In this document: piece after piece, positions 4,277 to 16,002 of the stretch | How the letters are laid out: each line of letters opens with the position of its first letter | Position numbering within the stretch: position 1 is the first letter of the stretch | Assembly (NCBI GenBank): GCA_039930245.1 | Contig: JBDSPR010000039.1 | Span: forward strand, 1-24,000 | DNA: 24,000 nt | Source of the DNA: Chitinophagaceae bacterium | Lineage (GTDB): Bacteria; Bacteroidota; Bacteroidia; Chitinophagales; Chitinophagaceae | Direction of reading: 5' to 3' | Notes under the pieces: generated by a model | Databases searched by the model: none | What the model saw: only the letters and a program-made list of their open reading frames with translations | Told to the model about the DNA's origin: nothing | Made by a program: the position numbers and the translations under genes

Positions 4277-4831
4277 ATGGCAAGAGTTATTTCCTCGATG
4301 GTGGCCCTGGGTACAAAAGCCCCGGACTTTACACTACCTGATACCGTATCCGGCAAAAACAAATCATTAAATGATATCAAAGGGGAAGCGGGAACGGTGA
4401 TCATGTTTATCTGCAACCATTGTCCCTTTTTGTTGCATGTGAATGACGAACTGGTAAAACTGGCCAATGATTACCGGGATAAGGGAATAGGTTTTATTGC
4501 CATCAGCGCTAATGATGTGGTCACCCATTCAGGGGATGGGCCGGAGCAGATGAAGGAGACGGCGCTCCGCCTGCATTATCCCTTTCCTTATTGTTATGAT
4601 GAAAAACAGGAAGTGGCGCGGGCCTATGCTGCGGCCTGTACGCCGGACTTCTTTATTTATGATAAAGAGAGGAGACTCGCTTACCGCGGCCAGTTGGATG
4701 ATTCCCGCCCCGGTAACGGGATACCGGTAACAGGACAGAATATCCGGGCGGCGCTGGATTGTTTAGGGGCAGGGAAGCGGGTACCGGCAGAGCAACGGCC
4801 TTCGATCGGATGTAATATAAAATGGAAGTAG
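4277..4831 (+). CDS. Thioredoxin-fold (AhpC/TSA-like redoxin) family protein
   Basis: 184 aa. LGTKAPDFTLPD followed by the FICNHCPF active-site-like motif is typical of thioredoxin-family thiol-disulfide oxidoreductases. A TAACTTTG (-7-like) motif at 4265-4272 lies very close to the ATG, so the true start may be the internal Met at 4298. Confidence 0.7.
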   Translation: MARVISSMVALGTKAPDFTLPDTVSGKNKSLNDIKGEAGTVIMFICNHCPFLLHVNDELVKLANDYRDKGIGFIAISANDVVTHSGDGPEQMKETALRLHYPFPYCYDEKQEVARAYAAACTPDFFIYDKERRLAYRGQLDDSRPGNGIPVTGQNIRAALDCLGAGKRVPAEQRPSIGCNIKWK

Positions 4832-5248
4832 ATGGCGGATGTGCATGATAAGAAGACACGGAGCTATAATATGTCGCAGATCAAAGCGACGAACACCAAA
4901 CCCGAGATGCTGGTGAGGAGGTTTTTGCATGCACAGGGCTTCCGCTATAAACTGCATCATAAAAAACTACCGGGAAAGCCGGATATCGTTCTTACGAAAT
5001 ACAAAACCGTCATCTTTATTCATGGCTGCTTCTGGCATGGACATGATAATTGCAGGTACTTTGTAGTACCGAAAACAAGGACTGACTGGTGGCTGGAGAA
5101 GTTATTCCGGAACAAGGCGAATGATAAAAAAGCTGTATCTGCGTTGAAAAAACTGGACTGGAAGGTTATTAGTGTTTGGGAATGTGACTTAAAATCTAAC
5201 AAGACTCAAAAGACACTATCTAAACTCCTTAAAAAAATCCGGTTTTAA
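4832..5248 (+). CDS. vsr: Very short patch repair endonuclease (Vsr)
   Basis: 138 aa with Vsr hallmarks: RSYNMSQIKATNTKPEMLVRRFLHAQGFRY, KPDIV and FIHGCFWHGH. The ATG directly follows the stop of the upstream gene (TAGATG). Confidence 0.9.
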   Translation: MADVHDKKTRSYNMSQIKATNTKPEMLVRRFLHAQGFRYKLHHKKLPGKPDIVLTKYKTVIFIHGCFWHGHDNCRYFVVPKTRTDWWLEKLFRNKANDKKAVSALKKLDWKVISVWECDLKSNKTQKTLSKLLKKIRF

Positions 5249-5307
5249 ACGTTTAATCCCAGGTTTTTTGATAGTTAAGATGTAATGTTGTGTAGTTTCT
5301 GAAAAAA

Positions 5308-6864
5308 ATGCAGCCGATACCAATTATTGATTTGTTTGCCGGTCCAGGTGGGCTGGGTGAGGGTTTTACGTCTGTTGTTGATAAAAAAAACAACCGCGTT
5401 TTCAGAATTGCTCTTTCTATAGAAAGAGATGAGTTTGCACATCGCACGTTAACCTTAAGAAGCTTCCTGAGGCAATTTCCGCATAAAAAATTTCCAAAAG
5501 AGTATTACCAATTTGTTCGTGATGAAATAAAAGACGTTCAGGAGTTATACAAATTATATCCTAAGGAAGCCGCAAATGCCAAACATGAAGTCTGGAAAAT
5601 TTCATTGGGAAGCCCGAATGACCATAAAGAAATAGACAGACGGATTACTGCAGGATTGAAGGGAGAAATAAATTTTGTTCTGATAGGAGGTCCGCCCTGC
5701 CAGGCTTATTCACTGGTGGGCAGAGCAAGAAGGCAGGAAGGAAATGGGTTAAACAAGGAAGATGAAAGAGTATATCTCTACCGTGAGTATTACCGGATAC
5801 TGGGCGTTCACAAGCCGCCCGTATTCATTATGGAAAATGTAAAAGGATTGCTGTCTTCCAAAATCGATAATAAATCTGTGTTCAGACAGCTTATTCAGGA
5901 CCTGCAAAATCCGGTCGAGTCATACAGAAAACTTGAAGGAAAGGATGATATAAAAAGTAAAACAAAATATCGGATTTTTTCTCTTGTTAAGAAACCAATT
6001 GAGTATGACCTAATTGACGGATCGCCAATATATGATGCAAAGGATTTCGTCATTCAGGCAGAAAAATATGGGATACCGCAAACAAGGCACAGGGTAATTT
6101 TATTGGGAATTAGAAATGATATAGATGTTACCCCTGAAATGCTTATACCGGGAAGTAAGCTAATTCCCGTTGAGGATGTTATATCCGGACTGCCTTCCCT
6201 TAGAAGCGGACTCTCTAAAACTAAAGATGGGAAGCAAGAGTGGAAGCAGGCCATGGAAGGTATTGTAAACACAATTTTAAAAAATCAGATTGATAAGGAC
6301 GTGTGGGAGAAAATGCTACAGGTTGTAAATAATCTTTCAATACCCCGAAAAGACAGAGGTGATAGCTTTATCGAGTGGCAGAACAAGGTTGACTACCAGC
6401 CATCCTGGTATCTTGACAACAAACTTAAAGGTGCTTGTAATCATGAAACACGGAGCCATATTGTGCAGGACCTTTATCGCTATTTATTTGTTTCCTGTTT
6501 TGCAAAAGTGAAAGGCAGATCACCCAAGCTTTCAGATTTCCCCAAATTATTGCTGCCCAAACATGAAAATGTAAATAAAGGAATAGAGGAAAATAAATTT
6601 GCAGATCGTTTCAGAACACAATTATATGGTCAACCTTCTAAAACAGTGACTAGCCATATTTCGAAGGATGGGCACTACTTTATACACCCCGATTCGGCAC
6701 AGTGCAGAAGTATGACTGTAAGAGAAGCCGCCAGGATACAGACTTTTCCGGATAATTATTATTTCTGCGGACCACGAACCGAACAGTTTCATCAGGTAGG
6801 GAATGCTGTGCCTCCTTTACTTGCGCAACAAATTGCATCAATAGTTCAAAAGTTGTTTGACTGA
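5308..6864 (+). CDS. dcm: DNA (cytosine-5)-methyltransferase
   Basis: 518 aa with the ordered m5C-MTase motifs: I DLFAGPGGLGEGF; IV GGPPCQAYS (catalytic Cys); VI FIMENVKGL; VIII QTRHRV; IX TVREAARIQTFPDNYYF; X GNAVPPLLA. About 200 aa of variable/target-recognition region separate VIII and IX. Confidence 0.95.
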   Translation: MQPIPIIDLFAGPGGLGEGFTSVVDKKNNRVFRIALSIERDEFAHRTLTLRSFLRQFPHKKFPKEYYQFVRDEIKDVQELYKLYPKEAANAKHEVWKISLGSPNDHKEIDRRITAGLKGEINFVLIGGPPCQAYSLVGRARRQEGNGLNKEDERVYLYREYYRILGVHKPPVFIMENVKGLLSSKIDNKSVFRQLIQDLQNPVESYRKLEGKDDIKSKTKYRIFSLVKKPIEYDLIDGSPIYDAKDFVIQAEKYGIPQTRHRVILLGIRNDIDVTPEMLIPGSKLIPVEDVISGLPSLRSGLSKTKDGKQEWKQAMEGIVNTILKNQIDKDVWEKMLQVVNNLSIPRKDRGDSFIEWQNKVDYQPSWYLDNKLKGACNHETRSHIVQDLYRYLFVSCFAKVKGRSPKLSDFPKLLLPKHENVNKGIEENKFADRFRTQLYGQPSKTVTSHISKDGHYFIHPDSAQCRSMTVREAARIQTFPDNYYFCGPRTEQFHQVGNAVPPLLAQQIASIVQKLFD

Positions 6865-6876
6865 TTACTTACTTTT

Positions 6877-7662
6877 TTATAATAAGCATACTTCTTGTTC
6901 AAAAACCTGTTCGACAGCACTGCTTAGTAGTCTTTTTTTGAAACCATTATACCGTACGAAAGCTTTAGCTACTTGCTTATCGTCAGCTGGCTTTCCTCCG
7001 GTCAATAAAATTTTGGCCATTATTTTTGAAACAAAATCATTGGGACTAAGAAGGCTAGTTTCAATAATATTGTTGATTAAATTCCCAAACCCCCCGCTCT
7101 TTTCGAATCTACTTTTCTCAGCCAATTTTTCAAGAAGGGCATACCCCTTCTCTTTATCATGCAATCTTTCTCCAATCAAAAAATATCTTCTGGGAAAAAT
7201 GTCCCTTGTTTTTTCACCAAAGCAATGTGTGAAAATTGATTTCGCCGCTCCTCCCAAGTCTTTCCTATCAATCAGTTTTTGCGCTCTTCTTGCCAGTACT
7301 TCTTTTAGAAAATGATTTAGTGACATCCATCTCCACATGGCATGATTATCAATATGGTTTTTAGAATAGCCGACCTTTTTTAATTCTTTATGGAAGATAA
7401 TTGCATAGTCGAATTCCATTCTATCGATAGGAACATCATGATTTTTTATTGTCAATAGGTGTAATGATTTTTTAATCGATGAAATAGCAAGAGCCTCGTC
7501 ATTGGAGATTTCACCTTCAATGTCGAGATTTAGTTTTTCCAGAAAGGAGCTAAACTCTTTCTGGGAATAGTTACAATATGGGGTAACTGTGTCTTCAAAT
7601 CTCCCCAAATCAGGACGTAATAGCTTTATCAAGTTCTCAGTTGATGTTTTGAATACTTTCAT
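6877..7662 (-). CDS. Hypothetical protein, operon gene 4 (function unknown; weak PD-(D/E)xK-like motif)
   Basis: 261-aa ORF, last gene of the minus-strand operon. Its stop lies 12 nt from the dcm stop (convergent). It overlaps the upstream gene by 26 nt. P78-I-D80 ... E93-L-K95 loosely fits PD-x(n)-ExK. No family recognised. Confidence 0.6.
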   Translation of the reverse strand: MKVFKTSTENLIKLLRPDLGRFEDTVTPYCNYSQKEFSSFLEKLNLDIEGEISNDEALAISSIKKSLHLLTIKNHDVPIDRMEFDYAIIFHKELKKVGYSKNHIDNHAMWRWMSLNHFLKEVLARRAQKLIDRKDLGGAAKSIFTHCFGEKTRDIFPRRYFLIGERLHDKEKGYALLEKLAEKSRFEKSGGFGNLINNIIETSLLSPNDFVSKIMAKILLTGGKPADDKQVAKAFVRYNGFKKRLLSSAVEQVFEQEVCLL

Positions 7663-8662
7663 ATGACTTTAGTTTAAACTCTTCTTTTATGAACCCTTTT
7701 AATTCTTTTTTGAAATTAATGGCCTTAGACTCTTGAATACCAACAAAAAGCTTTTGAGACAAAATAAAATATTCAATAGTTTGTTCTTGAGAAAACTTTG
7801 GCATGTTAGCAATTTCTGAGATTCTATTTTTTGATTCTTTGCAATATCCCGAATACAAATCAAGAAAGCTTCGATATTCTTTGTCAGTTTCATCATAAGA
7901 TGAAATGAAAATTAGCCATCTAAGGTATGTGTCAAGTATATAGAATGAAAATGTCAAAAAAGCTGAATTCACGGAAAGTAAATCATCACGTTTAAAATAT
8001 TCCTCGAAATCATCATTGTAGTAAATTCTAGGAATAATTACAGAATTTTCAAGGCCTTCGATTCTAAATAACGAATCTCCCATTCCGGTCTTTGGAAAAA
8101 TTGGAAAGTGATTACCGCCAACATCTTTTACTTCATCAAGTAATACTTTGAAATCCTCTCCAGTTGAAAGAATCGAATATGGCATTGATGCCTTTTTTGG
8201 TGTTTTTCTTTTCGCTTCTATTTCTCTGGTTAAATAGTAAGATAAAGAAATAGAATCTCTTGTATCAGATAAGGGAATTTCTATTTCTACTTCCTTTGTT
8301 TTTGATATTTCCGAAAGCGATATTCTCTTTTGAGCGCTACACCATTTTGATTTTTTGCATGAAGCTTGAATACGAATACACAAAACATCAAACGGGTTTT
8401 CCTGCTCATTTACTAGAAAATTTAAATCTTTGAAACTATACCCCTCGTTGAAAAAAATGCAAAATCTCAAATAAAGAGTAGTATTATCTTCTCTTAGCCT
8501 TAATCTCGTACCATCCTCAAAAAAGTGGTTAAAGAGGTTCAAGACCTGGTTGCCAGGCATTTTGATGGTAGCGTTTACTGAAGGAATGAATGCACCACAT
8601 TCTAAACCAAATAGATTGTCCATTTTGTCATACGTATCGATTGATATATTTCTCTCACTCAT
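7637..8662 (-). CDS. Hypothetical protein, operon gene 3 (function unknown)
   Basis: ORF runs 7637-8734. I prefer the start at 8662 (MSERNISID...) because that ATG overlaps the TGA of the upstream gene as ATGA (8659-8662). No motif recognised. The N-terminal half looks beta-rich and the C-terminal half helical. Confidence 0.6.
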   Translation of the reverse strand: MSERNISIDTYDKMDNLFGLECGAFIPSVNATIKMPGNQVLNLFNHFFEDGTRLRLREDNTTLYLRFCIFFNEGYSFKDLNFLVNEQENPFDVLCIRIQASCKKSKWCSAQKRISLSEISKTKEVEIEIPLSDTRDSISLSYYLTREIEAKRKTPKKASMPYSILSTGEDFKVLLDEVKDVGGNHFPIFPKTGMGDSLFRIEGLENSVIIPRIYYNDDFEEYFKRDDLLSVNSAFLTFSFYILDTYLRWLIFISSYDETDKEYRSFLDLYSGYCKESKNRISEIANMPKFSQEQTIEYFILSQKLFVGIQESKAINFKKELKGFIKEEFKLKSYESIQNIN

Positions 8663-10608
8663 AATATAAGATTTGCGGTTGCTTTTATGATAGGCTCTAC
8701 ATTTTGAAATGCACGATTGCCAAGAATATTGCAAGTCCTAACTGTAATAGCCTTGGCTTCTTTTGGAGAGAGTTGGACAGATGGATTCTCTCCTGCTGAG
8801 AGCAGGACATCCTTCTCATCAAGAATTTCAAGATTTTTGAAATCATCTATTCCCAATACGTCAAAATCTTTTTCCCGCTCACCTTCTAATGAATTAATTT
8901 TGCCTTTAAATGTGATACAGATTGGTTTTTCCTCTGAATTTGAAATGACTCTGTAGTTAAATAAATATCTGCCTAGTTCATCGATTTTAGGCTCAGAAAT
9001 TTTTCTCATTAAAAATAATGATGTACCCCCCTTTTCATCCCCGGTGGATTTTAATTTCGTTAATTTTTTAAAGATTGAGCAAATATCTTTTGGTGCGCTG
9101 ACGATTTTCTCCTTTACAATAAACTTTCGTAGAATTTTACCTATTTCTCTAAAAATGCCATAAATCCCGGTCTCCGGTCTTGGACTTTTACCATCAAACC
9201 GTTCTAGAAAGCAGATTGGATAATCTTCTCTCGTTTGACACCATTTATTATGTGATGGGTTTTCCGAATATGCTAAATATAAGTCTAGATGTCTTTTTGC
9301 ATCTTCTTTCGGCTCACTTTTACATAATAGACCAGTGAACAATATGCTTTCAAATCGGATATCTTTCGTTTCAAATGCCATGTAGTGATTAATTGTCATT
9401 CCCCTATTTCTTGTAAGGGCAACTTTGTTTTCTGTTTCCCAGATGTCTTCAAAGTCTTCATCTTCCTCTATAATTCTAATTACTAGGTCTGCATTCGCAA
9501 TTCTTTTTATGAAGGCAAAGGAGTTACTGGCTCTTTTAAACTCAGGCTTTAACTTAGGAACCTGAACGGAAAATGTTTCAAGCTTTAAATTCTTTTGTTT
9601 CGGTGCTTTGTCGAAATACCAATCTAATATTTCAACCTTATATTTAAGCTGACTAATTCCTCTTAAAGTATTGGAATCTATTTTAATAAAACTTCCACCA
9701 GCCTCAATTTCAATGATGAGATTTCCATGATATATAGGGATGAACCAGTTTTTAAGAATCTGATCACGAAACTCATTAAAGATTTTATTTAAATCAGGGT
9801 CTTCTAAAAATGAATTAAAGAAAGGCACAAAAAAAGTCGTACCGTAATTCTTGTTCCGTACCCTCAAATTTAGTTTGTTTGCGAAGTCGTCTGCTTGTTC
9901 ATTTACATATGGATCAACATCTTTGCCGTTCTGACAAAACCAACCCTCCCCGAGATAGGTTTTTTCCTCACCAAGATTATAGAATGGGGCGATAGCACAT
10001 CTTCCCATAAATCTTTTTTTGTGTACCGCATTATTTTTTTTATCTGTCCAAGCGTCTTCAAATTCTGTATATGAAAACCACATCCAAAGCGAAGACGAAA
10101 AGGTGAAAACAGAACTTCCTTTACCCCAGGTTCCGCCACTATTAATATTTTCCTTTTTCGTTTCATTGTCATCTACCATCCTCATTAGCGAATTAAAATT
10201 CGACGGCGTCGGCATCTCATTTTCATATCCGTTTACAGATCCATTAAGACCAATACAATTTTGTTCTTCAATTGTTAGAGAAAAAAGATTGTTTTCGCCC
10301 CCCTTCAATAAATTATACCCGTCTTGCATCTTAATTTTTGCATCCTCTTGCGCTTTTTCATGTGATCTTTCATAATAAGTTAGACAATCGCTACCAAATA
10401 TGTTTTTAAAATTTTCTAAATCTTTAGTAGTCCAATCCTTAATCGTAAATTTTACAAGTGTGGGACTCGTGTCATTTTTTCTAACGTCAAGCGAATTTTG
10501 GATTATTTCTCTAACCAACGATTTAATAGAGTGGTCTTCAAGATCTTTCAGCCTTAATGGCCGCTTATTCTGACCAGCGTTTCCTTCTTGTGATTGATAA
10601 TACCACAT
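8659..10608 (-). CDS. GHKL (Bergerat-fold, MORC/MutL/Hsp90-type) ATPase-like protein, operon gene 2
   Basis: 649 aa. N-terminal N-box-like E34-IIQ-N37-SL-D41 (VREIIQNSLDV; compare ELVENSLDA in MutL). G2-box-like GGTWGKGSSVFTF at aa 158-170. The DxGxG position is degenerate (QNCIGL, aa 116-121). No HisKA, transmembrane or receiver features. The C-terminal ~450 aa are unassigned. Confidence 0.55.
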   Translation of the reverse strand: MWYYQSQEGNAGQNKRPLRLKDLEDHSIKSLVREIIQNSLDVRKNDTSPTLVKFTIKDWTTKDLENFKNIFGSDCLTYYERSHEKAQEDAKIKMQDGYNLLKGGENNLFSLTIEEQNCIGLNGSVNGYENEMPTPSNFNSLMRMVDDNETKKENINSGGTWGKGSSVFTFSSSLWMWFSYTEFEDAWTDKKNNAVHKKRFMGRCAIAPFYNLGEEKTYLGEGWFCQNGKDVDPYVNEQADDFANKLNLRVRNKNYGTTFFVPFFNSFLEDPDLNKIFNEFRDQILKNWFIPIYHGNLIIEIEAGGSFIKIDSNTLRGISQLKYKVEILDWYFDKAPKQKNLKLETFSVQVPKLKPEFKRASNSFAFIKRIANADLVIRIIEEDEDFEDIWETENKVALTRNRGMTINHYMAFETKDIRFESILFTGLLCKSEPKEDAKRHLDLYLAYSENPSHNKWCQTREDYPICFLERFDGKSPRPETGIYGIFREIGKILRKFIVKEKIVSAPKDICSIFKKLTKLKSTGDEKGGTSLFLMRKISEPKIDELGRYLFNYRVISNSEEKPICITFKGKINSLEGEREKDFDVLGIDDFKNLEILDEKDVLLSAGENPSVQLSPKEAKAITVRTCNILGNRAFQNVEPIIKATANLIL

Positions 10609-10613
10609 ATTGT

Positions 10614-11663
10614 TTAATTTTTGTAGCCAAGTGTTTTTCTACCAAATTCGCTTACACCATATTTTACATAGATGCCATCTTTCTCTTTCTTAATAAGTCC
10701 CAGTTCAAACATTCTGGCAGTTATACCCGCCCTTTGAGTGTTAATCACGGCGTTCGTCACCCCCCATATTCTCCCAAATGTTGTTTCTATTTCCGTGTTT
10801 AATAACACTCTTTCATTTTTTCCGCTACTAATTTTCTCAAGCATCCACTGAATAGCACCATATTCTCCTTTCACATTTTCTTTAATATGAGCGAGATAAT
10901 AAAGACTTTCTTCTTCATTCAATGAATTATCAAGGTCATCATTATCTAATACTGAGTTAGCAATTAAAGAAAACCTTAAACCTGGTTCTGTCAGACCAAT
11001 CATTTTTTTCTTCTTTTCTTCATAAATATTACAAAATTTCATAAGGGACATTGCACCATCCATTAGTCCGTCTTTCCGCAGATAAACCATGAATTGAAAC
11101 TTATAACGGTTCCGGCTTTTTTCATCAGAAGAAGGGAGAGCCGCGGAAATTTTCTCACCTCTCATTTTATTATTCCTTTTTTCATATACCCTAATTTGGT
11201 CTCCCATAGTAGCGGCTTCAGTAGAAACCATTTCAAGAAATTCATTTAATTCTATTGATTGCCTGGTTGCCAGAATCTGGTGAAGAATCCTCACGCCAAC
11301 CTTTACAGGAAATATTTTATTTACCTGTCCCCAGATCCACGCTTCATTTTCCTGAATCTTTTGGGAGGCATATACGAGGTCCTTAAACTCGGGTGGGTTA
11401 ACGACTGTGTTGAAAGCAGGGATATTTTTCAAAGCAAGCCTTTCAAAATTATCCTGCTCATACATGATATTATCAATATTGGTCGCTTGGGATTTTTTGT
11501 CGGATGTATATGGCATCAGGTCACTTATTTCATTTTCTTCAAGGGATAGCTGGTTCTCAATTGCGGTACTGATAAATTGGGATATAGACCCATAATTTCC
11601 TTTGTCAAAATACTTTTGGATGGAACGAGCTTGCTTTGGAGTAATATCTATTATATACCTCAT
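10614..11663 (-). CDS. Ribbon-helix-helix-like N-terminal domain protein, operon gene 1
   Basis: ORF runs 10614-11687. I prefer the start at 11663 (MRYIIDITPKQARSIQKYFDKGNYGSISQFISTAIENQL) because a TATGTTTG -7-like promoter motif overlaps the first ATG. That segment has the strand/helix/G-x-S/helix layout of CopG/Arc-type RHH domains. The C-terminus (INTQRAGITARMFELGLIKKEKDGIYVKYGVSEFG) looks winged-helix-like. Confidence 0.55.
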   Translation of the reverse strand: MRYIIDITPKQARSIQKYFDKGNYGSISQFISTAIENQLSLEENEISDLMPYTSDKKSQATNIDNIMYEQDNFERLALKNIPAFNTVVNPPEFKDLVYASQKIQENEAWIWGQVNKIFPVKVGVRILHQILATRQSIELNEFLEMVSTEAATMGDQIRVYEKRNNKMRGEKISAALPSSDEKSRNRYKFQFMVYLRKDGLMDGAMSLMKFCNIYEEKKKKMIGLTEPGLRFSLIANSVLDNDDLDNSLNEEESLYYLAHIKENVKGEYGAIQWMLEKISSGKNERVLLNTEIETTFGRIWGVTNAVINTQRAGITARMFELGLIKKEKDGIYVKYGVSEFGRKTLGYKN

Positions 11664-11680
11664 TTTATGTGTTTCAATAA

Positions 11681-11688
11681 CAAACATA
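11681..11688 (-). promoter_or_regulatory. Candidate Bacteroidota -7 promoter element (TAnnTTTG) for the four-gene operon
   Basis: The minus strand reads TATGTTTG at 11688-11681. A partial -33-like GTTG lies 20 nt upstream (about 11712-11709). The implied transcription start falls between the two candidate ATGs, favouring the 11663 start. Confidence 0.3.
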
Positions 11689-11774
11689 CAATACTTCGTA
11701 CATAGTTACAACACTATATAGAAAATCATTTGATTTTCCTCATACACTTGATCTTAGTAACTGATTTTCAGACC

Positions 11775-11805
11775 TTTGATAAGAATGAGATATTTCCTAA
11801 TTTTG
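11775..11805 (+). promoter_or_regulatory. Candidate Bacteroidota promoter (-33 TTTG / -7 TAATTTTG) for the 82-aa/kinase pair
   Basis: TTTG at 11775-11778 and TAATTTTG at 11798-11805 are separated by a 19-nt spacer, about 40 nt upstream of the ATG at 11844. This matches the Bacteroides-type sigma-A consensus TTTG-N19-21-TAnnTTTG. Confidence 0.4.
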
Positions 11806-11843
11806 TATGGCAAATCCATTGAATAACCCTCTACTTACTATCT

Positions 11844-12092
11844 ATGAAAAAGAAAATGTTTGAGCTTTCGGGTCTGCTTGCAATACAAATATTGAGAAAA
11901 GAGAAGTTAGGCAATGGGCACCCGTTTATGATTAATTCTCCACAATTGCCAGAGGGACAATGTTATCTGGAATATCCGAACGGGTTAATACAAATTGTTG
12001 CTCTGTCCAAATCAAGAAAAGATTTCGAAAAAATAAAGCAGTTGTCAAAAAAAGAATCTATCTCCCTGCTTCAATCGCTCCAGCTCACCTAA
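11844..12092 (+). CDS. Small hypothetical protein (possible antitoxin partner of the downstream kinase)
   Basis: 82-aa ORF ending 6 nt before the P-loop kinase gene on the same strand, with a plausible promoter upstream. No family recognised. Confidence 0.5.
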   Translation: MKKKMFELSGLLAIQILRKEKLGNGHPFMINSPQLPEGQCYLEYPNGLIQIVALSKSRKDFEKIKQLSKKESISLLQSLQLT

Positions 12093-12098
12093 AATCTA

Positions 12099-12761
12099 AT
12101 GCCGGATCTATATATAATAACCGGTTCTAATGGGGCTGGCAAGTCTTCCGTTGGCCCATACTATCTACCCGATAATATAAAAAAGGAGTATGAAGTTTTT
12201 GATGGAGATAAACTATTTAGCAAAAAAAGGAAAGAGCTTTTCAAAGTTAAAACGCAGTCTCTGAAAGAAGCAAAGCAACTGGCTACAGATTGGTTGCACG
12301 AAGAGTTTGAAAGAAGAGTATCCGATGCAATTTCCAAAAAAGATCATTTTGTTTATGAAGGCCATCTCCCTGAAAAAGATAATTGGAAAACGCCATTGCG
12401 CTTTAAGAAAGCTGGTTATAGAATTAACCTGATTTTTTTAGGATTAACGGATACAAATATCTCTTACTTGAGAGTTTTGGAAAGGGCCAAAATCGGGGGG
12501 CATAATGTGCCACCGTATGAAATAGAACGAAATTATTATGGAAACCTGCATCAACTCAATAATCACTATTCAATAATTGATTACCTTGAAATACATGACA
12601 CCTCGGTAACACCTATCCTCAAACCGCTGGCAATTTTTAAAAAGGGAAAAGTAGAATGGTGTTTGCCAGTGAAAGAACTCCCCCTGTGGTTTGAGGATGA
12701 ACTTCCTGATTTATTTCAATTAGCGTATGAAAAAAACAACCCTTTGGAGTTTGAGGAATGA
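12099..12761 (+). CDS. Zeta-toxin-like / COG4185-type P-loop kinase
   Basis: 220 aa. N-terminal Walker A LYIITGSNGAGKSS in the position and context typical of zeta-toxin-family small kinases, and of typical size for that family. Confidence 0.6.
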   Translation: MPDLYIITGSNGAGKSSVGPYYLPDNIKKEYEVFDGDKLFSKKRKELFKVKTQSLKEAKQLATDWLHEEFERRVSDAISKKDHFVYEGHLPEKDNWKTPLRFKKAGYRINLIFLGLTDTNISYLRVLERAKIGGHNVPPYEIERNYYGNLHQLNNHYSIIDYLEIHDTSVTPILKPLAIFKKGKVEWCLPVKELPLWFEDELPDLFQLAYEKNNPLEFEE

Positions 12762-12789
12762 AATATTTTAGGAATAGTATTTTAATTTC

Positions 12790-13054
12790 ATGAGCTTTTT
12801 GTACTAATATTTATCGCCCTCTCCCTGCATCTCCCCACCCAACCACAAAAACTCTATAAAATAATCGCCTACTACACCGGCAATACGGAAACGATCAAAC
12901 AATACCCGGTAGAAAAGCTGACCCATATCATCTACAGCTTCTTAAAACTCCAAAACGATACGCTTACGTTTCATAACGAACAGCAAAGAAAAACACTGGA
13001 GCAGCTGGTGCAACTGAAAAAGACCTACCCGCAGTTAAAGATCATGGTATCCGT
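12790..13054 (+). pseudogene. Truncated, frameshifted 5' fragment of a GH18 hydrolase gene (diverged copy of 14920-15186)
   Basis: Aligns by eye with the first ~88 codons of the intact gene at 14920: YKIIAYYTGNTETIKQYPVEKLTHIIYSFLKLQNDTLTFHNEQQRKTLEQLVQLKKTYPQLKIMVS versus YKIIAYYTGNGETIKQYPVEKLTHIIYSFLKLQNDTLGFHNDDQRKTLEQLVQLKKTHPQLKIMVS. The ATG at 12790 is out of frame with this reading frame. Similarity stops at about 13054. Confidence 0.85.
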
Positions 13055-13098: not shown

Positions 13099-14646
13099 TT
13101 AAATACCCGCCACCGGATGCCCTTTCATTGTTTCGCTTACCAGGTAGGCTATAAATTTTGTAAAAGGCTCAATATCCCTATCCACACTTGCTTTCTCCAA
13201 TAACTGCATATACCTGTCGCGTTCCTGTACAGGTATTACCGTCCAGGGATATCCCCCCGAGGCCAGCATTACATTCATTAAAAAACGGCCCATCCTGCCA
13301 TTGCCATCCATATAAGGATGGATATAAACAAATATAAAATGCCCCAGCACGGCTCTTACAGACGCTTCAGGTTCTTTTTGTATCAGCTCAAATAGTACAG
13401 GCATCACATCACGAACAGCATCCTGGCTCATGGGGACATGCTTTGATCCGCTGATATAAACGGGCTGATTGCGATAGCCGGCGAGGTCAGCTGCTTTTAA
13501 TAAACCCACGGCTACACTGGGAGCAAATAATTCCCGGTACCAGTCTCCGTGGTCCTTATCGGTAACTAATCCCGCATTGCCGCCATTTAATATTTTCTGT
13601 ATGCTTTCTCTTAGTTTTTGCGTGGCTTGCCAGTAACCTCTGGCAGCCATCGCATCTCTCTGTTTTTTATCTTCAGCATTATTCGTGATATCCCAGGCCC
13701 CACCCCTCACCTTATCTACCAAGGCAGGTGTTACCCGGTATCGTTCTATGGATAAGGAATGATAAGCATCTGTCACATATAGATCCTCCACTTGTTTCAT
13801 GTATGCTTCATGATCGGAAGGAATTCCCGGAGCTTTTGGAAAATGTGCTATAACAATATCTCTCATTTCATACCATAGCAGTTTTATCCTGTTTATATGC
13901 GGCGAATACTCTTTTGCTGCTAAACCGGCAGGAATAGTTGTCTTAAAAGGATTCGTTTCCCGTGTATCGTACCCTGCTGCCATCATTGTGCTTAGTATGT
14001 CGTCAGCGATCTTGTTTCTTTCTATATTCCGGAATGCTCCGGCTAAGCGGCCTGCTATAGTGGAATGTTCTCCTTCAAGCAACAACCCCGTTATTTCGGA
14101 AGAATCTTTTATCATTGCCAATGCGGTTCTCGTATCGGTTGCATCTTTTGTAAAGATGGCCGGTGTACAGTTAATGAGTGAAGAAGGCAGCGTTAACATC
14201 CGGATTCCTTCGATGATAATAAATTGAGCGGATTTCGGAATGGAAGATTCCCAGTGCCATAGGGAAACACCATGAGGTAAAGGAGTGCTGTGGTTGGCTT
14301 TTTTGGTGGTACGGATAATTAGCTGTTGCGGAACGGTCCAGTTACCGGAATGAATTAATAAAGCCTGATCAGGAGAAATAAAATAATCATCTCCATACCT
14401 GTCCGCTAGGTAGCCAGCACAAAAATGCCAGTAAGAAGCATACCAGGAAGTACTGTCACCAGGCTGTTCATCAGGAGGGGTTGAAATATACCAGCCCTTT
14501 GTAACTTGCTTAAGAAAACCATTTTTTAATAAACGGGTACGGTGTACTTTTGTCAGCTCAGCGGATTTTATCGCTACATTCCCTTTCTCTTGGAGTGCAT
14601 GTAATATCTCCAGGGACTCTGCTAGTTTTTCAGCGGGTTTCGCCAT
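13099..14646 (-). CDS. fic: Fic-domain protein with long N-terminal extension (AbiEi-like wHTH)
   Basis: 515 aa. Fic motif HPYMDGNGRMGR at aa 443-454 (HxFx[D/E]GNGRxxR with F to Y). Inhibitory-helix-like SLSIER at aa 297-302. The N-terminus (AIKSAELTKVHRTRLLKNGFLKQVTKGWYI) resembles AbiEi-type antitoxin wHTH domains. Confidence 0.85.
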   Translation of the reverse strand: MAKPAEKLAESLEILHALQEKGNVAIKSAELTKVHRTRLLKNGFLKQVTKGWYISTPPDEQPGDSTSWYASYWHFCAGYLADRYGDDYFISPDQALLIHSGNWTVPQQLIIRTTKKANHSTPLPHGVSLWHWESSIPKSAQFIIIEGIRMLTLPSSLINCTPAIFTKDATDTRTALAMIKDSSEITGLLLEGEHSTIAGRLAGAFRNIERNKIADDILSTMMAAGYDTRETNPFKTTIPAGLAAKEYSPHINRIKLLWYEMRDIVIAHFPKAPGIPSDHEAYMKQVEDLYVTDAYHSLSIERYRVTPALVDKVRGGAWDITNNAEDKKQRDAMAARGYWQATQKLRESIQKILNGGNAGLVTDKDHGDWYRELFAPSVAVGLLKAADLAGYRNQPVYISGSKHVPMSQDAVRDVMPVLFELIQKEPEASVRAVLGHFIFVYIHPYMDGNGRMGRFLMNVMLASGGYPWTVIPVQERDRYMQLLEKASVDRDIEPFTKFIAYLVSETMKGHPVAGI

Positions 14647-14683
14647 ATTTCTTCTTAGTTATTTGAATAACAACAATTTGTGC

Positions 14684-14779
14684 GATTACCAGGTTATACG
14701 GACGTGTAATTACCAGGTTATGTGGCTGTGTGATTGCCAGGTTATTCGGACGTACGATTACCAGGTTATGTGGCTAAAA
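14684..14779. repeat. Four phased 24-bp direct repeats (core [G/A]ATT[A/G]CCAGGTTAT) upstream of fic
   Basis: Cores start at 14684, 14708, 14732 and 14756, an exact 24-bp period. The array can also be read as 2 x 48 bp. It begins 38 nt upstream of the fic start codon (14646, minus strand). Confidence 0.85.
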
Positions 14780-14919: not shown

Positions 14920-16002
14920 ATGAGATCCTTTCTACTCGCGGTATTTATCACCTCCTGCCTCCATCTCCCCGCCCAACCCAACAAAGACTATAAAATCATC
15001 GCCTACTACACCGGCAATGGAGAAACGATTAAACAATACCCGGTAGAAAAACTCACGCATATCATCTATAGCTTTTTAAAACTGCAAAACGATACGCTTG
15101 GCTTCCACAACGACGACCAGCGGAAAACACTGGAGCAACTGGTGCAACTGAAAAAGACCCATCCGCAGTTAAAGATCATGGTATCCATCGGCGGCTGGGG
15201 CGGTTGTGCTCCCTGTTCCGGGCTTTTTAATTCGGCAGTGCACCGGGAAAATTTTGCCAAAACAACCGTCGCCTTATTTAAACAATATGGTATTGATGGG
15301 CTCGACCTGGATTGGGAGTACCCGGCCATTGAAGGATATCCCGGGCATCAGTATGAGGCGAAGGATAAAGAAAATTTTACATTGCTGGTAAAAGCATTGA
15401 GAGAAGAAATGGGTTCCGACTACCTGCTCAGTTTTGCAGCGGGGGGTTTTGTAAAATACCTGGAACAATCTGTCGACTGGCAGCAAGTGATGCCGTTGGT
15501 AGATTTTGTAAACCTCATGACTTACGACCTGGTAGGTGGCTATAGCACCCTCACCGGGCACCATACACCACTGGCCGGTTACAGGGCGGGACAGGAATCC
15601 ACAGACAAATGTGTAAACTGGTTATTGCAAAAAAATGTTCCCTCGGATAAACTCATCATTGGCGCTGCCTTTTATGCAAGGGTCTGGGAAAATGTTGCGG
15701 ATACTAACCATGGTCTGTACCAGGGCGGTAAGTTTAAACAGGGAGTAGCGTATAAAAATTTCCCTATTTATTTTAGTGATAGTTCGGGATATAACTATTA
15801 CTGGGATAAAAAAGCAAAAGCTCCTTATCGCTACAACCCAACAAAAAAACTATTCGCCACTTTTGATGATAAGCGATCGATCGGTGAGAAAACAAAATTT
15901 ATCCGCAGCAATAAACTCGGCGGGATCATGTTCTGGGAATTAAGTGATGATCAGCCAGTGAATGGGCTGCTATATGAAATAGGCAGGGGATTAAATTATT
16001 AA
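14920..16002 (+). CDS. Glycoside hydrolase family 18 (chitinase-like), secreted
   Basis: 360 aa with an N-terminal signal peptide, the GH18 catalytic motif DGLDLDWEYP, and the conserved IGGWG and MTYDL segments. Confidence 0.85.
   Translation: MRSFLLAVFITSCLHLPAQPNKDYKIIAYYTGNGETIKQYPVEKLTHIIYSFLKLQNDTLGFHNDDQRKTLEQLVQLKKTHPQLKIMVSIGGWGGCAPCSGLFNSAVHRENFAKTTVALFKQYGIDGLDLDWEYPAIEGYPGHQYEAKDKENFTLLVKALREEMGSDYLLSFAAGGFVKYLEQSVDWQQVMPLVDFVNLMTYDLVGGYSTLTGHHTPLAGYRAGQESTDKCVNWLLQKNVPSDKLIIGAAFYARVWENVADTNHGLYQGGKFKQGVAYKNFPIYFSDSSGYNYYWDKKAKAPYRYNPTKKLFATFDDKRSIGEKTKFIRSNKLGGIMFWELSDDQPVNGLLYEIGRGLNY

Follow-up and report, generated by a model that had tools for sequence, protein, structure and literature searches.

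A GHKL ATPase operon beside dcm and vsr in a Chitinophagaceae bacterium: a putative divergent member of the phage-defence candidate PDC-M33 and its near-obligate partnership with 5-methylcytosine methylases

PDC-M33 is a PADLOC phage-defence candidate (PDC), listed as cassette CAS_00129 with three protein families in the order A>>B>>C (Payne et al., bioRxiv 10.1101/2024.01.29.577857). Candidates of this kind entered the list through "guilt-by-embedding", as they lie within BREX, DISARM or Type I restriction-modification (R-M) loci, and PDC-M33 was not among the seven systems validated in that study (10.1101/2024.01.29.577857). In the literature that we found, no function, fold or methylase dependence of PDC-M33 is described. 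GHKL ATPases of the MORC/paraMORC type encoded beside Dcm and Vsr were predicted to be R-M components by Iyer, Abhiman and Aravind in 2008 (PMC2292703). Here we analyse a four-gene operon (g1 to g4) in a 24,000-nt stretch of contig JBDSPR010000039.1 of a metagenome-assembled Chitinophagaceae genome, a stretch that we call the window. Profile comparisons place the operon in PDC-M33, as a divergent branch from the Bacteroidota clade with a ribbon-helix-helix (RHH) protein as first gene. Its last three genes, the products of which we call A (g2), B (g3) and C (g4), are inherited almost always together with a 5-methylcytosine (5mC) methylase across Bacteria and Archaea.

All four genes are open reading frames (ORFs) without internal stop on the minus strand. 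g1, also termed R, occupies 10614–11663 (349 aa) or 10614–11687 (357 aa), g2 8659–10608 (649 aa), g3 7637–8662 (341 aa when read from its ATG) and g4 6877–7662 (261 aa). A 5-nt gap separates the g1 stop from the g2 start, stop and start of g2 and g3 overlap in an ATGA at 8659–8662, and g3 and g4 share 26 nt, so that g1 to g4 form one tightly packed four-gene operon. The stop codon of g4 lies 12 nt from that of dcm, which is convergent with the operon and has vsr upstream of it. The coordinates, junctions and AT-richness that the preliminary description of this locus had reported were confirmed. Since all g3 homologs start with MSER, the ATG of g3 at 8662 is well supported, and g1 probably starts at M9 (11663) because its homologs in two other loci (L017 and L028) start there.

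The connection to PDC-M33 is most direct for A. Against the PADLOC hidden Markov model (HMM) of PDC-M33A (PDLC04582), A scores 1e-23, with residues 26–462 aligned to positions 29–385 of the 627-position profile, and A of a marine relative (L021) reaches 1.7e-35. Searches of Pfam, NCBIfam and PDB sequences gave no match for A, deep profiles included, and HATPase_c and HATPase_c_3 remained silent. The AlphaFold2 (AF2) model of A, with a predicted local distance difference test (pLDDT) score of 83, matched topoisomerase VI subunit B (Topo VI-B; 2q2e_B, 9e-10; 9o0g_B, 2e-9) and the SMCHD1 ATPase (6mw7, 1e-5) in a Foldseek search of the PDB. On the strength of this model and the alignments, A is assigned as a divergent GHKL/Bergerat ATPase with an S5-like transducer domain, a helical region and a C-terminal β-sandwich, and ATPase activity is predicted. 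Residues invariant from Bacteroidota to haloarchaea comprise the N-box (E34-x2-Q37-N38-x2-D41, with E34, Q37, N38 and D41), the G1 and G2 boxes (G120, L121, G123, G158, G159, G162 and G164), K152 and a later part (R400, G403, E449, H453 and W456). The GHKL assignment made earlier from motifs was thus borne out by model, Foldseek matches and invariant residues, with a correction, as the metal-binding Asn placed at position 37 is N38. The last three of these residues form an ExxxH motif (E449-x3-H453-x2-W456) directly after the transducer region, which is kept across Bacteria and Archaea. The G1 box is atypical (E115-x-N117-x2-G-L-x-G), with D or E at position 115. This residue (encoded at about 10264–10266), which we take to correspond to the adenine-contacting Asp of canonical GHKL ATPases, is an invariant Glu in the Bacteroidota-type clade and Asp in the marine and haloarchaeal clades.

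C can be tied to PDC-M33 through intermediates. The window protein itself has no DUF6339 or PDC-M33C match at E ≤ 0.1, and 5 of 40 members of its family reach DUF6339. Homologs of g4 carry precomputed PF19866 (DUF6339) annotation. An exhaustive search of 1.84 billion representatives with the g4-family profile returned 33 clusters only, including a protein (P0159) at E 3e-6 that matches DUF6339 at 1.2e-23 and PDC-M33C at 4.7e-15; the homology of g4 to both families is therefore transitive. By these profile links, C is placed as a distant member of Pfam DUF6339 and PADLOC PDC-M33C. In the superfamily alignment only H91, L94, W110, F118, W124, R125 and R159 persist. A relation to MjaI-like restriction enzymes was considered and rejected, as 2 of 40 members match RE_MjaI, and these weakly.

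B is much harder to place. The slot between A and C is always filled by a gene of about 325–345 aa, and similarity of B across the deep clades was undetectable; B is the fastest-evolving subunit. The PDC-M33B HMM gave no match for g3, for its 14 relatives or for the middle genes of L021 and L019, both deep branches. Pfam, NCBIfam, PADLOC and PDB sequence searches were likewise without a match for B, and no significant nuclease match was obtained by sequence or structure. The AF2 model of B (pLDDT 81.5) consists of a β-sandwich region (about residues 18–216) and a C-terminal helical bundle (about 217–338). Its best Foldseek match in the PDB had E 1.9e-3, the matches were mostly generic β-sandwiches (Ig-like), and BFVD was uninformative. 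We rejected B as a Topo VI-A/Toprim-like protein or PD-(D/E)xK nuclease, as the fold does not fit and a nuclease-like "D176-E-x-K179" is not conserved in one relative (L005).

The three genes travel as a unit. Among 108 loci (labelled L001 and so on) annotated with HMMs from our own alignments, 104 non-redundant A genes were found, 88 of them in a complete A-B-C cassette. Incomplete cassettes were mostly cut at contig ends, and some only seem incomplete because of gap-based parsing, as in L028 and L025, both of which have C. The order A-B-C is kept in all loci examined, and the same gene order in about 100 independent loci is an arrangement far beyond chance; the four genes form one conserved cassette, which upholds the earlier view of them as one operon. 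A-B-C occurs in 12 Bacteroidota species genomes, in metagenomic contigs, in marine bacteria, on four haloarchaeal megaplasmids and on one Deinococcus plasmid; no homologs were found in phage and viral-contig collections. Neighbours of the cassette include toxin-antitoxin, Fic and other R-M genes.

A constant neighbour is a methylase. Of the non-redundant cassettes, 22 are flanked by 5 kb or more of sequence on each side; all 22 have a PF00145-type methylase no more than 5 kb away, and in 21 of them the distance is at most 500 nt. Over all complete cassettes the count within 5 kb is 78 of 88, with most exceptions at contig ends; one locus (L072) may lack a nearby methylase. In L019–L022, cassette and methylase are immediate neighbours that share a strand. 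The window methylase belongs to a type of roughly 520 aa that the deepest branches share and that is the ancestral partner of the cassette: its full-length identity to the methylases of the deep branches L019 and L021 is 43–47%, while the identity of A has fallen to 35% and 23% there. Over 51 non-redundant units, the similarity of the methylases followed that of A (Spearman 0.81, Mantel 0/500), with values of 0.69 within haloarchaea and 0.52 (3/500) within the Bacteroidota-type clade; this co-divergence shows stable linkage, not function. The link to methylation that had been suggested from the window is therefore upheld by adjacency as well as by co-divergence with A. Controller-like helix-turn-helix (HTH) genes adjoin the methylase in L009, L019 and L020, as in classical R-M systems, and in most loci no other restriction enzyme is encoded beside the methylase. 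Vsr is found within 5 kb of 16 of 21 Bacteroidota-type cassettes and of none of 66 haloarchaeal cassettes. As the haloarchaeal cassettes lack Vsr and keep the methylase, the constant partner is the methylase and not Vsr. In the window, dcm (5308–6864, plus strand) encodes a C5-cytosine DNA methyltransferase of 518 aa (Pfam DNA_methylase 1.4e-44; TIGR00675 above cutoff) and vsr (4832–5248, plus strand) a very-short-patch repair endonuclease (Pfam Vsr 2.6e-35; TIGR00632 1.3e-42, above cutoff).

The gene in front of A varies between clades. In most bacterial loci the first-gene slot holds a protein of 63–78 aa, and haloarchaea have other genes there. An RHH protein of about 350 aa stands first in the window, L017 and L028, and matches to the R model were also found in L034, L065 and L094. 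The homolog in L017 occupies the same position and is 45% identical to g1. The homolog on a Halobaculum plasmid (L028) has 361 aa, overlaps the start of A and matches g1 over the full length (hhalign 99.9%, E 5.8e-37; tblastn 7e-42). As NCBI annotates this haloarchaeal protein as "ribbon-helix-helix domain-containing protein", the RHH-like N-terminus first proposed for g1 gains support from a full-length homolog. Searches of Pfam, NCBIfam, PADLOC and PDB sequences with g1 itself gave no match, and we call its N-terminus RHH-like from the sequence pattern and the homolog annotation alone. g1 probably serves the operon as its DNA-binding regulator or adaptor. The short upstream protein of about 78 aa is not the N-terminal domain of g1, as hhalign shows no relation between them, and no copy of it is present in the window.

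Upstream of g1 lies a divergent intergenic region (11664–11843, read from the sequence) that separates the operon from a small ORF and a zeta-toxin gene and that probably contains the operon promoter. The element TATGTTTG at 11688–11681 (minus strand) fits TAnnTTTG, which we take from Bacteroides promoters to be the −7 consensus of Bacteroidota; the upstream ATG of g1 (11687) falls within TATGTTTG. A scan of the region for sigma-70 promoters and terminators gave scores not above those of shuffled sequences, with a sigma-70 model that is unsuited to Bacteroidota. Between g1 and the small ORF, a perfect 8+8 palindrome, GAAAATCA-AA-TGATTTTC, at 11738–11721 (minus strand) is a candidate operator to which one or the other small DNA-binding protein may bind. 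The divergent pair itself (11844–12761) consists of an 82-aa ORF and a zeta-toxin-family kinase (Pfam Zeta_toxin 1.4e-10), which probably act as toxin and antitoxin. In L011 (6810–7725), homologs of both genes (43% and 47% identity) lie between dcm and vsr; the pair therefore travels with the neighbourhood of the cassette.

The operon is part of a larger AT-rich island. The GC content of the operon is 0.347 and that of the island (4832–13052) 0.362, compared with 0.479 in the left and 0.421 in the right flank. On the left, the edge is sharp: the ATG of vsr (4832) abuts the stop codon (4831) of a GC-rich AhpC/TSA-like gene, and the GC content steps at 4831/4832 from 0.50 in this gene to about 0.41 in vsr and 0.36 over the full island. 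None of the ORFs examined was noticed to encode an integrase, and no tRNA was found. On the right, a direct repeat of 245 nt with 85% identity occurs at 12808–13052 and 14942–15186, with a Fic gene (13099–14646, minus strand) between the copies; the second copy overlaps the 5′ end of a glycosyl-hydrolase-18 (GH18) gene (14920–16002). This arrangement looks like an insertion that duplicated the 5′ end of its target gene, or like the right-hand boundary of the island. Four tandem 24-nt units (about TGTGCGATTACCAGGTTATACGGA) at 14679–14774, between the Fic and GH18 genes, could be iteron- or operator-like elements.

Some loci deviate from the standard layout. L018 (447–2812) is degraded: A is cut down to 516 aa, and in place of B and C there is a 261-aa protein that carries a NOV_C (NO VEIN C-terminal) domain; a 5mC methylase still adjoins. 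In haloarchaeal metagenome loci (L044, L046, L057, L061, L064, L078, L084 and others), 2–3 deeply divergent cassettes are arranged around 1–2 5mC methylases, with identities between the stacked paralogs of 30–39% for A, 22–31% for B, the lowest, and 27–42% for C. Two further conserved genes, of about 257 aa (X257) and 508 aa (X508), often accompany these cassettes, and C-B-A-X508-X257-M / A-B-C recurs as the layout; a PDB sequence search found no relatives of X257 or X508. The stacking suggests a larger composite system or specificity arrays. In L001 and L007 (4051–9444), a second and different GHKL-methylase cluster lies on the other strand immediately upstream of the cassette and comprises an HTH gene, a 901-aa HATPase_c_3 protein, proteins of 302 aa and 175 aa and a 342-aa 5mC methylase. 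Thus, two GHKL-based, methylase-linked systems stand back to back in these loci.

How could such a cassette work? We propose, with a little better than an even chance of being right, that the operon is the ATP-dependent effector arm of a 5mC R-M-like system whose self-mark is provided by the adjacent Dcm-type methylase; defence function, methylation dependence, complex formation and effector activity are what we infer here. The methylase would mark host DNA, and Vsr would repair the T:G mismatches that arise from 5mC deamination. ATP binding would make A dimerise, in the manner of Topo VI-B, MutL and MORC, and A would clamp DNA together with B and C. On DNA without the methyl mark, the complex would cleave or otherwise inactivate the DNA, and g1 with its RHH-like domain, or the small protein that replaces it elsewhere, may control expression or DNA loading. 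Only two sites are candidates for a nuclease centre: the ExxxH of A, which is universal, and, in C, the His/Arg/Trp core. Several observations weigh against this proposal. No nuclease, helicase or translocase domain was detected in g1 to g4 by sequence searches or in the models of A and B, and Walker A, DEAD/DExH and HxK(x4)D motifs are absent from the four proteins, which agrees with what had been noted earlier for Walker A and helicase motifs. The C superfamily alignment contains no conserved acidic cluster, a feature that speaks against a metal-dependent nuclease of the conventional kind. Methylases of at least five types have replaced one another in Bacteroidota with no matching change in A, B or C, which is awkward for a sequence-specific nuclease matched to its methylase, and in L001 and L014 the incoming methylase is accompanied by a classical restriction enzyme of its own (MvaI/BcnI-like or EcoRII-C). 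Literature searches on DUF6339, PDC-M33 and bacterial MORC defence brought up no characterisation of the system and no experimental data, and no paper found mentions DUF6339.

The lack of any nuclease fold or motif in A, B, C and g1 also invites the idea that A-B-C is a MORC/SMCHD1-like ATP-driven clamp that reads methylation and traps, compacts or silences unmethylated incoming DNA without cutting it. The best structural matches of A include the chromatin-silencing GHKL ATPase SMCHD1, the methylase link is tight yet tolerant of methylase type, and the aromatic and basic core of C (W110, F118, W124, R125, R159 and H91) suits binding over catalysis. However, such a clamp would have no prokaryotic precedent, the ExxxH motif of A could be catalytic, as could the His that is invariant in C, and an undetected nuclease may have a novel fold, the models covering A and B only; we therefore consider silencing without cleavage unlikely. 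An equally small probability falls to A-B-C as an independent defence module that is merely co-located with R-M genes and has no functional need of a methylase. PDCs were, after all, identified through embedding in other systems, complete classical R-M genes stand beside the cassette in L001, L014 and the contig of P0056, and the swapped methylases of Bacteroidota as well as the possible methylase-free locus would fit a loose association. But the methylase adjoins every well-flanked cassette, mostly within 500 nt, shares its strand in several clades and co-diverges with A across Bacteria and Archaea, a linkage far above ordinary co-occurrence in islands. Adjacency and co-divergence thus favour a methylation-controlled effector arm over an independent module.

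Two further explanations appear less probable again. The methylase and A-B-C could mainly form a module for selfish addiction or epigenetic regulation that works through post-segregational killing or through gene control by methylation, and not through antiviral defence; the island with its zeta-toxin pair and Fic gene, the occurrence on haloarchaeal megaplasmids and a Deinococcus plasmid and the absence from phage collections are consistent with this. We hold it to be quite improbable, as addiction of the R-M type and defence are not mutually exclusive and nothing at this locus is specific to regulation. Least probable in our estimate is that A-B-C is a MutL-like accessory that stimulates Vsr, so that the operon would serve very-short-patch repair of 5mC deamination damage and not defence. 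Vsr is the sole recognisable nuclease in the window and accompanies most Bacteroidota-type cassettes, and E. coli MutL, itself a GHKL ATPase, stimulates Vsr, as discussed in Iyer et al. 2008 (PMC2292703). This explanation is at odds with the haloarchaeal cassettes, none of which has a detectable Vsr although the methylase is kept, with the location of the cassette in AT-rich mobile islands with toxins and with the stacking of 2–3 divergent cassettes per haloarchaeal locus, which is typical of arms-race genes. To our knowledge, moreover, most natural dcm-vsr pairs are without A-B-C.

If the operon is the effector of a 5mC restriction-like system, restriction would be driven by a GHKL clamp ATPase and not by a helicase or AAA+ motor. 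With no recognisable nuclease in the operon, there would be a nuclease of a new fold to discover, or else a mechanism that does not cleave. Were A-B-C a true clamp, it would provide immunity that is guided by methylation and leaves DNA uncut, and it might be an evolutionary forerunner of the tie between MORC and DNA methylation in eukaryotes. The partnership with a methylase in Bacteroidota, Deinococcus, marine bacteria and haloarchaea turns the PDC-M33 entry into a defined, testable system of five or six genes, and the prediction of 2008 that MORC-like ATPases originated in R-M systems becomes directly testable. The Bacteroidota branch has probably gone uncounted, as PADLOC models catch one of the three core proteins of the window clade according to our HMM scans.

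The preliminary description had suggested an undescribed system. This part did not stand, since g2 matches PDC-M33A and relatives of g4 match DUF6339 and PDC-M33C; what remains is that PDC-M33 is catalogued but uncharacterised. Nor is the theme of a GHKL ATPase with Dcm and Vsr new, as it was already set out in Iyer et al. 2008 (PMC2292703). New here are the fold assignment of A, the methylase partnership in two domains of life and the RHH first-gene variant, and also that, judged by HMM matches, the window clade reaches the current PADLOC models through A only.

Of the known systems, Mza, the DISARM core, BREX and Wadjet (JetACD) found no match among the nine window proteins in the PADLOC scan, and the poor fit to these four systems noted earlier is thereby reproduced. 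In the same scan, dcm matched the DrmMII, MTase_II and DruM models, Vsr was matched as well, the Fic protein matched SoFic/PDC-S/AbiEi, the zeta protein matched mad3 insignificantly (0.07), and g2 matched PDC-M33A and, marginally, JetB. We treat the partial JetB match (E 0.007, 63 residues) as noise and the DrmMII match as general similarity of 5mC methylases rather than a sign of DISARM, of which no other genes are present. Like classical R-M systems, the locus encodes a methyltransferase beside the putative effector genes; in contrast to them, no endonuclease domain was identified in g1 to g4 by sequence searches and the models of A and B. A shares the N-box, a G1-like box, the G2 box and a Bergerat fold followed by a transducer with GHKL ATPases in general, and Topo VI-B and SMCHD1, its best Foldseek matches, have the GHKL and transducer architecture in common with it, although sequence identity to A is 7–11%. 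A partner of the Topo VI-A/Spo11 type (Toprim and catalytic-Tyr winged helix) was not detected, B with its β-sandwich and helices has no Toprim match, and C is without Toprim-like conserved acidic residues. None of the tests made identifies A as a topoisomerase. ParaMORC2, by its description, resembles A in one respect: an ExxxH motif closes its S5 domain (PMC2292703). The paraMORC/MORC neighbourhoods of that paper feature superfamily II helicases and restriction-endonuclease-fold nucleases, which are absent here, and in the parts consulted neither B nor C/DUF6339 nor the RHH protein is mentioned. The core of the operon corresponds to PDC-M33. The B and C proteins of the window miss the PDC-M33B and PDC-M33C HMMs, and the window adds the RHH protein g1 (about 349 aa) before A, plus Vsr; from the HMM scans we expect that PADLOC would not call the system in the window. 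However, g2 matches PDC-M33A, g4 is tied to PDC-M33C/DUF6339 through profile searches, and the same-strand order A>>B>>C is that of the window as well as of its archaeal, marine and Deinococcus relatives.

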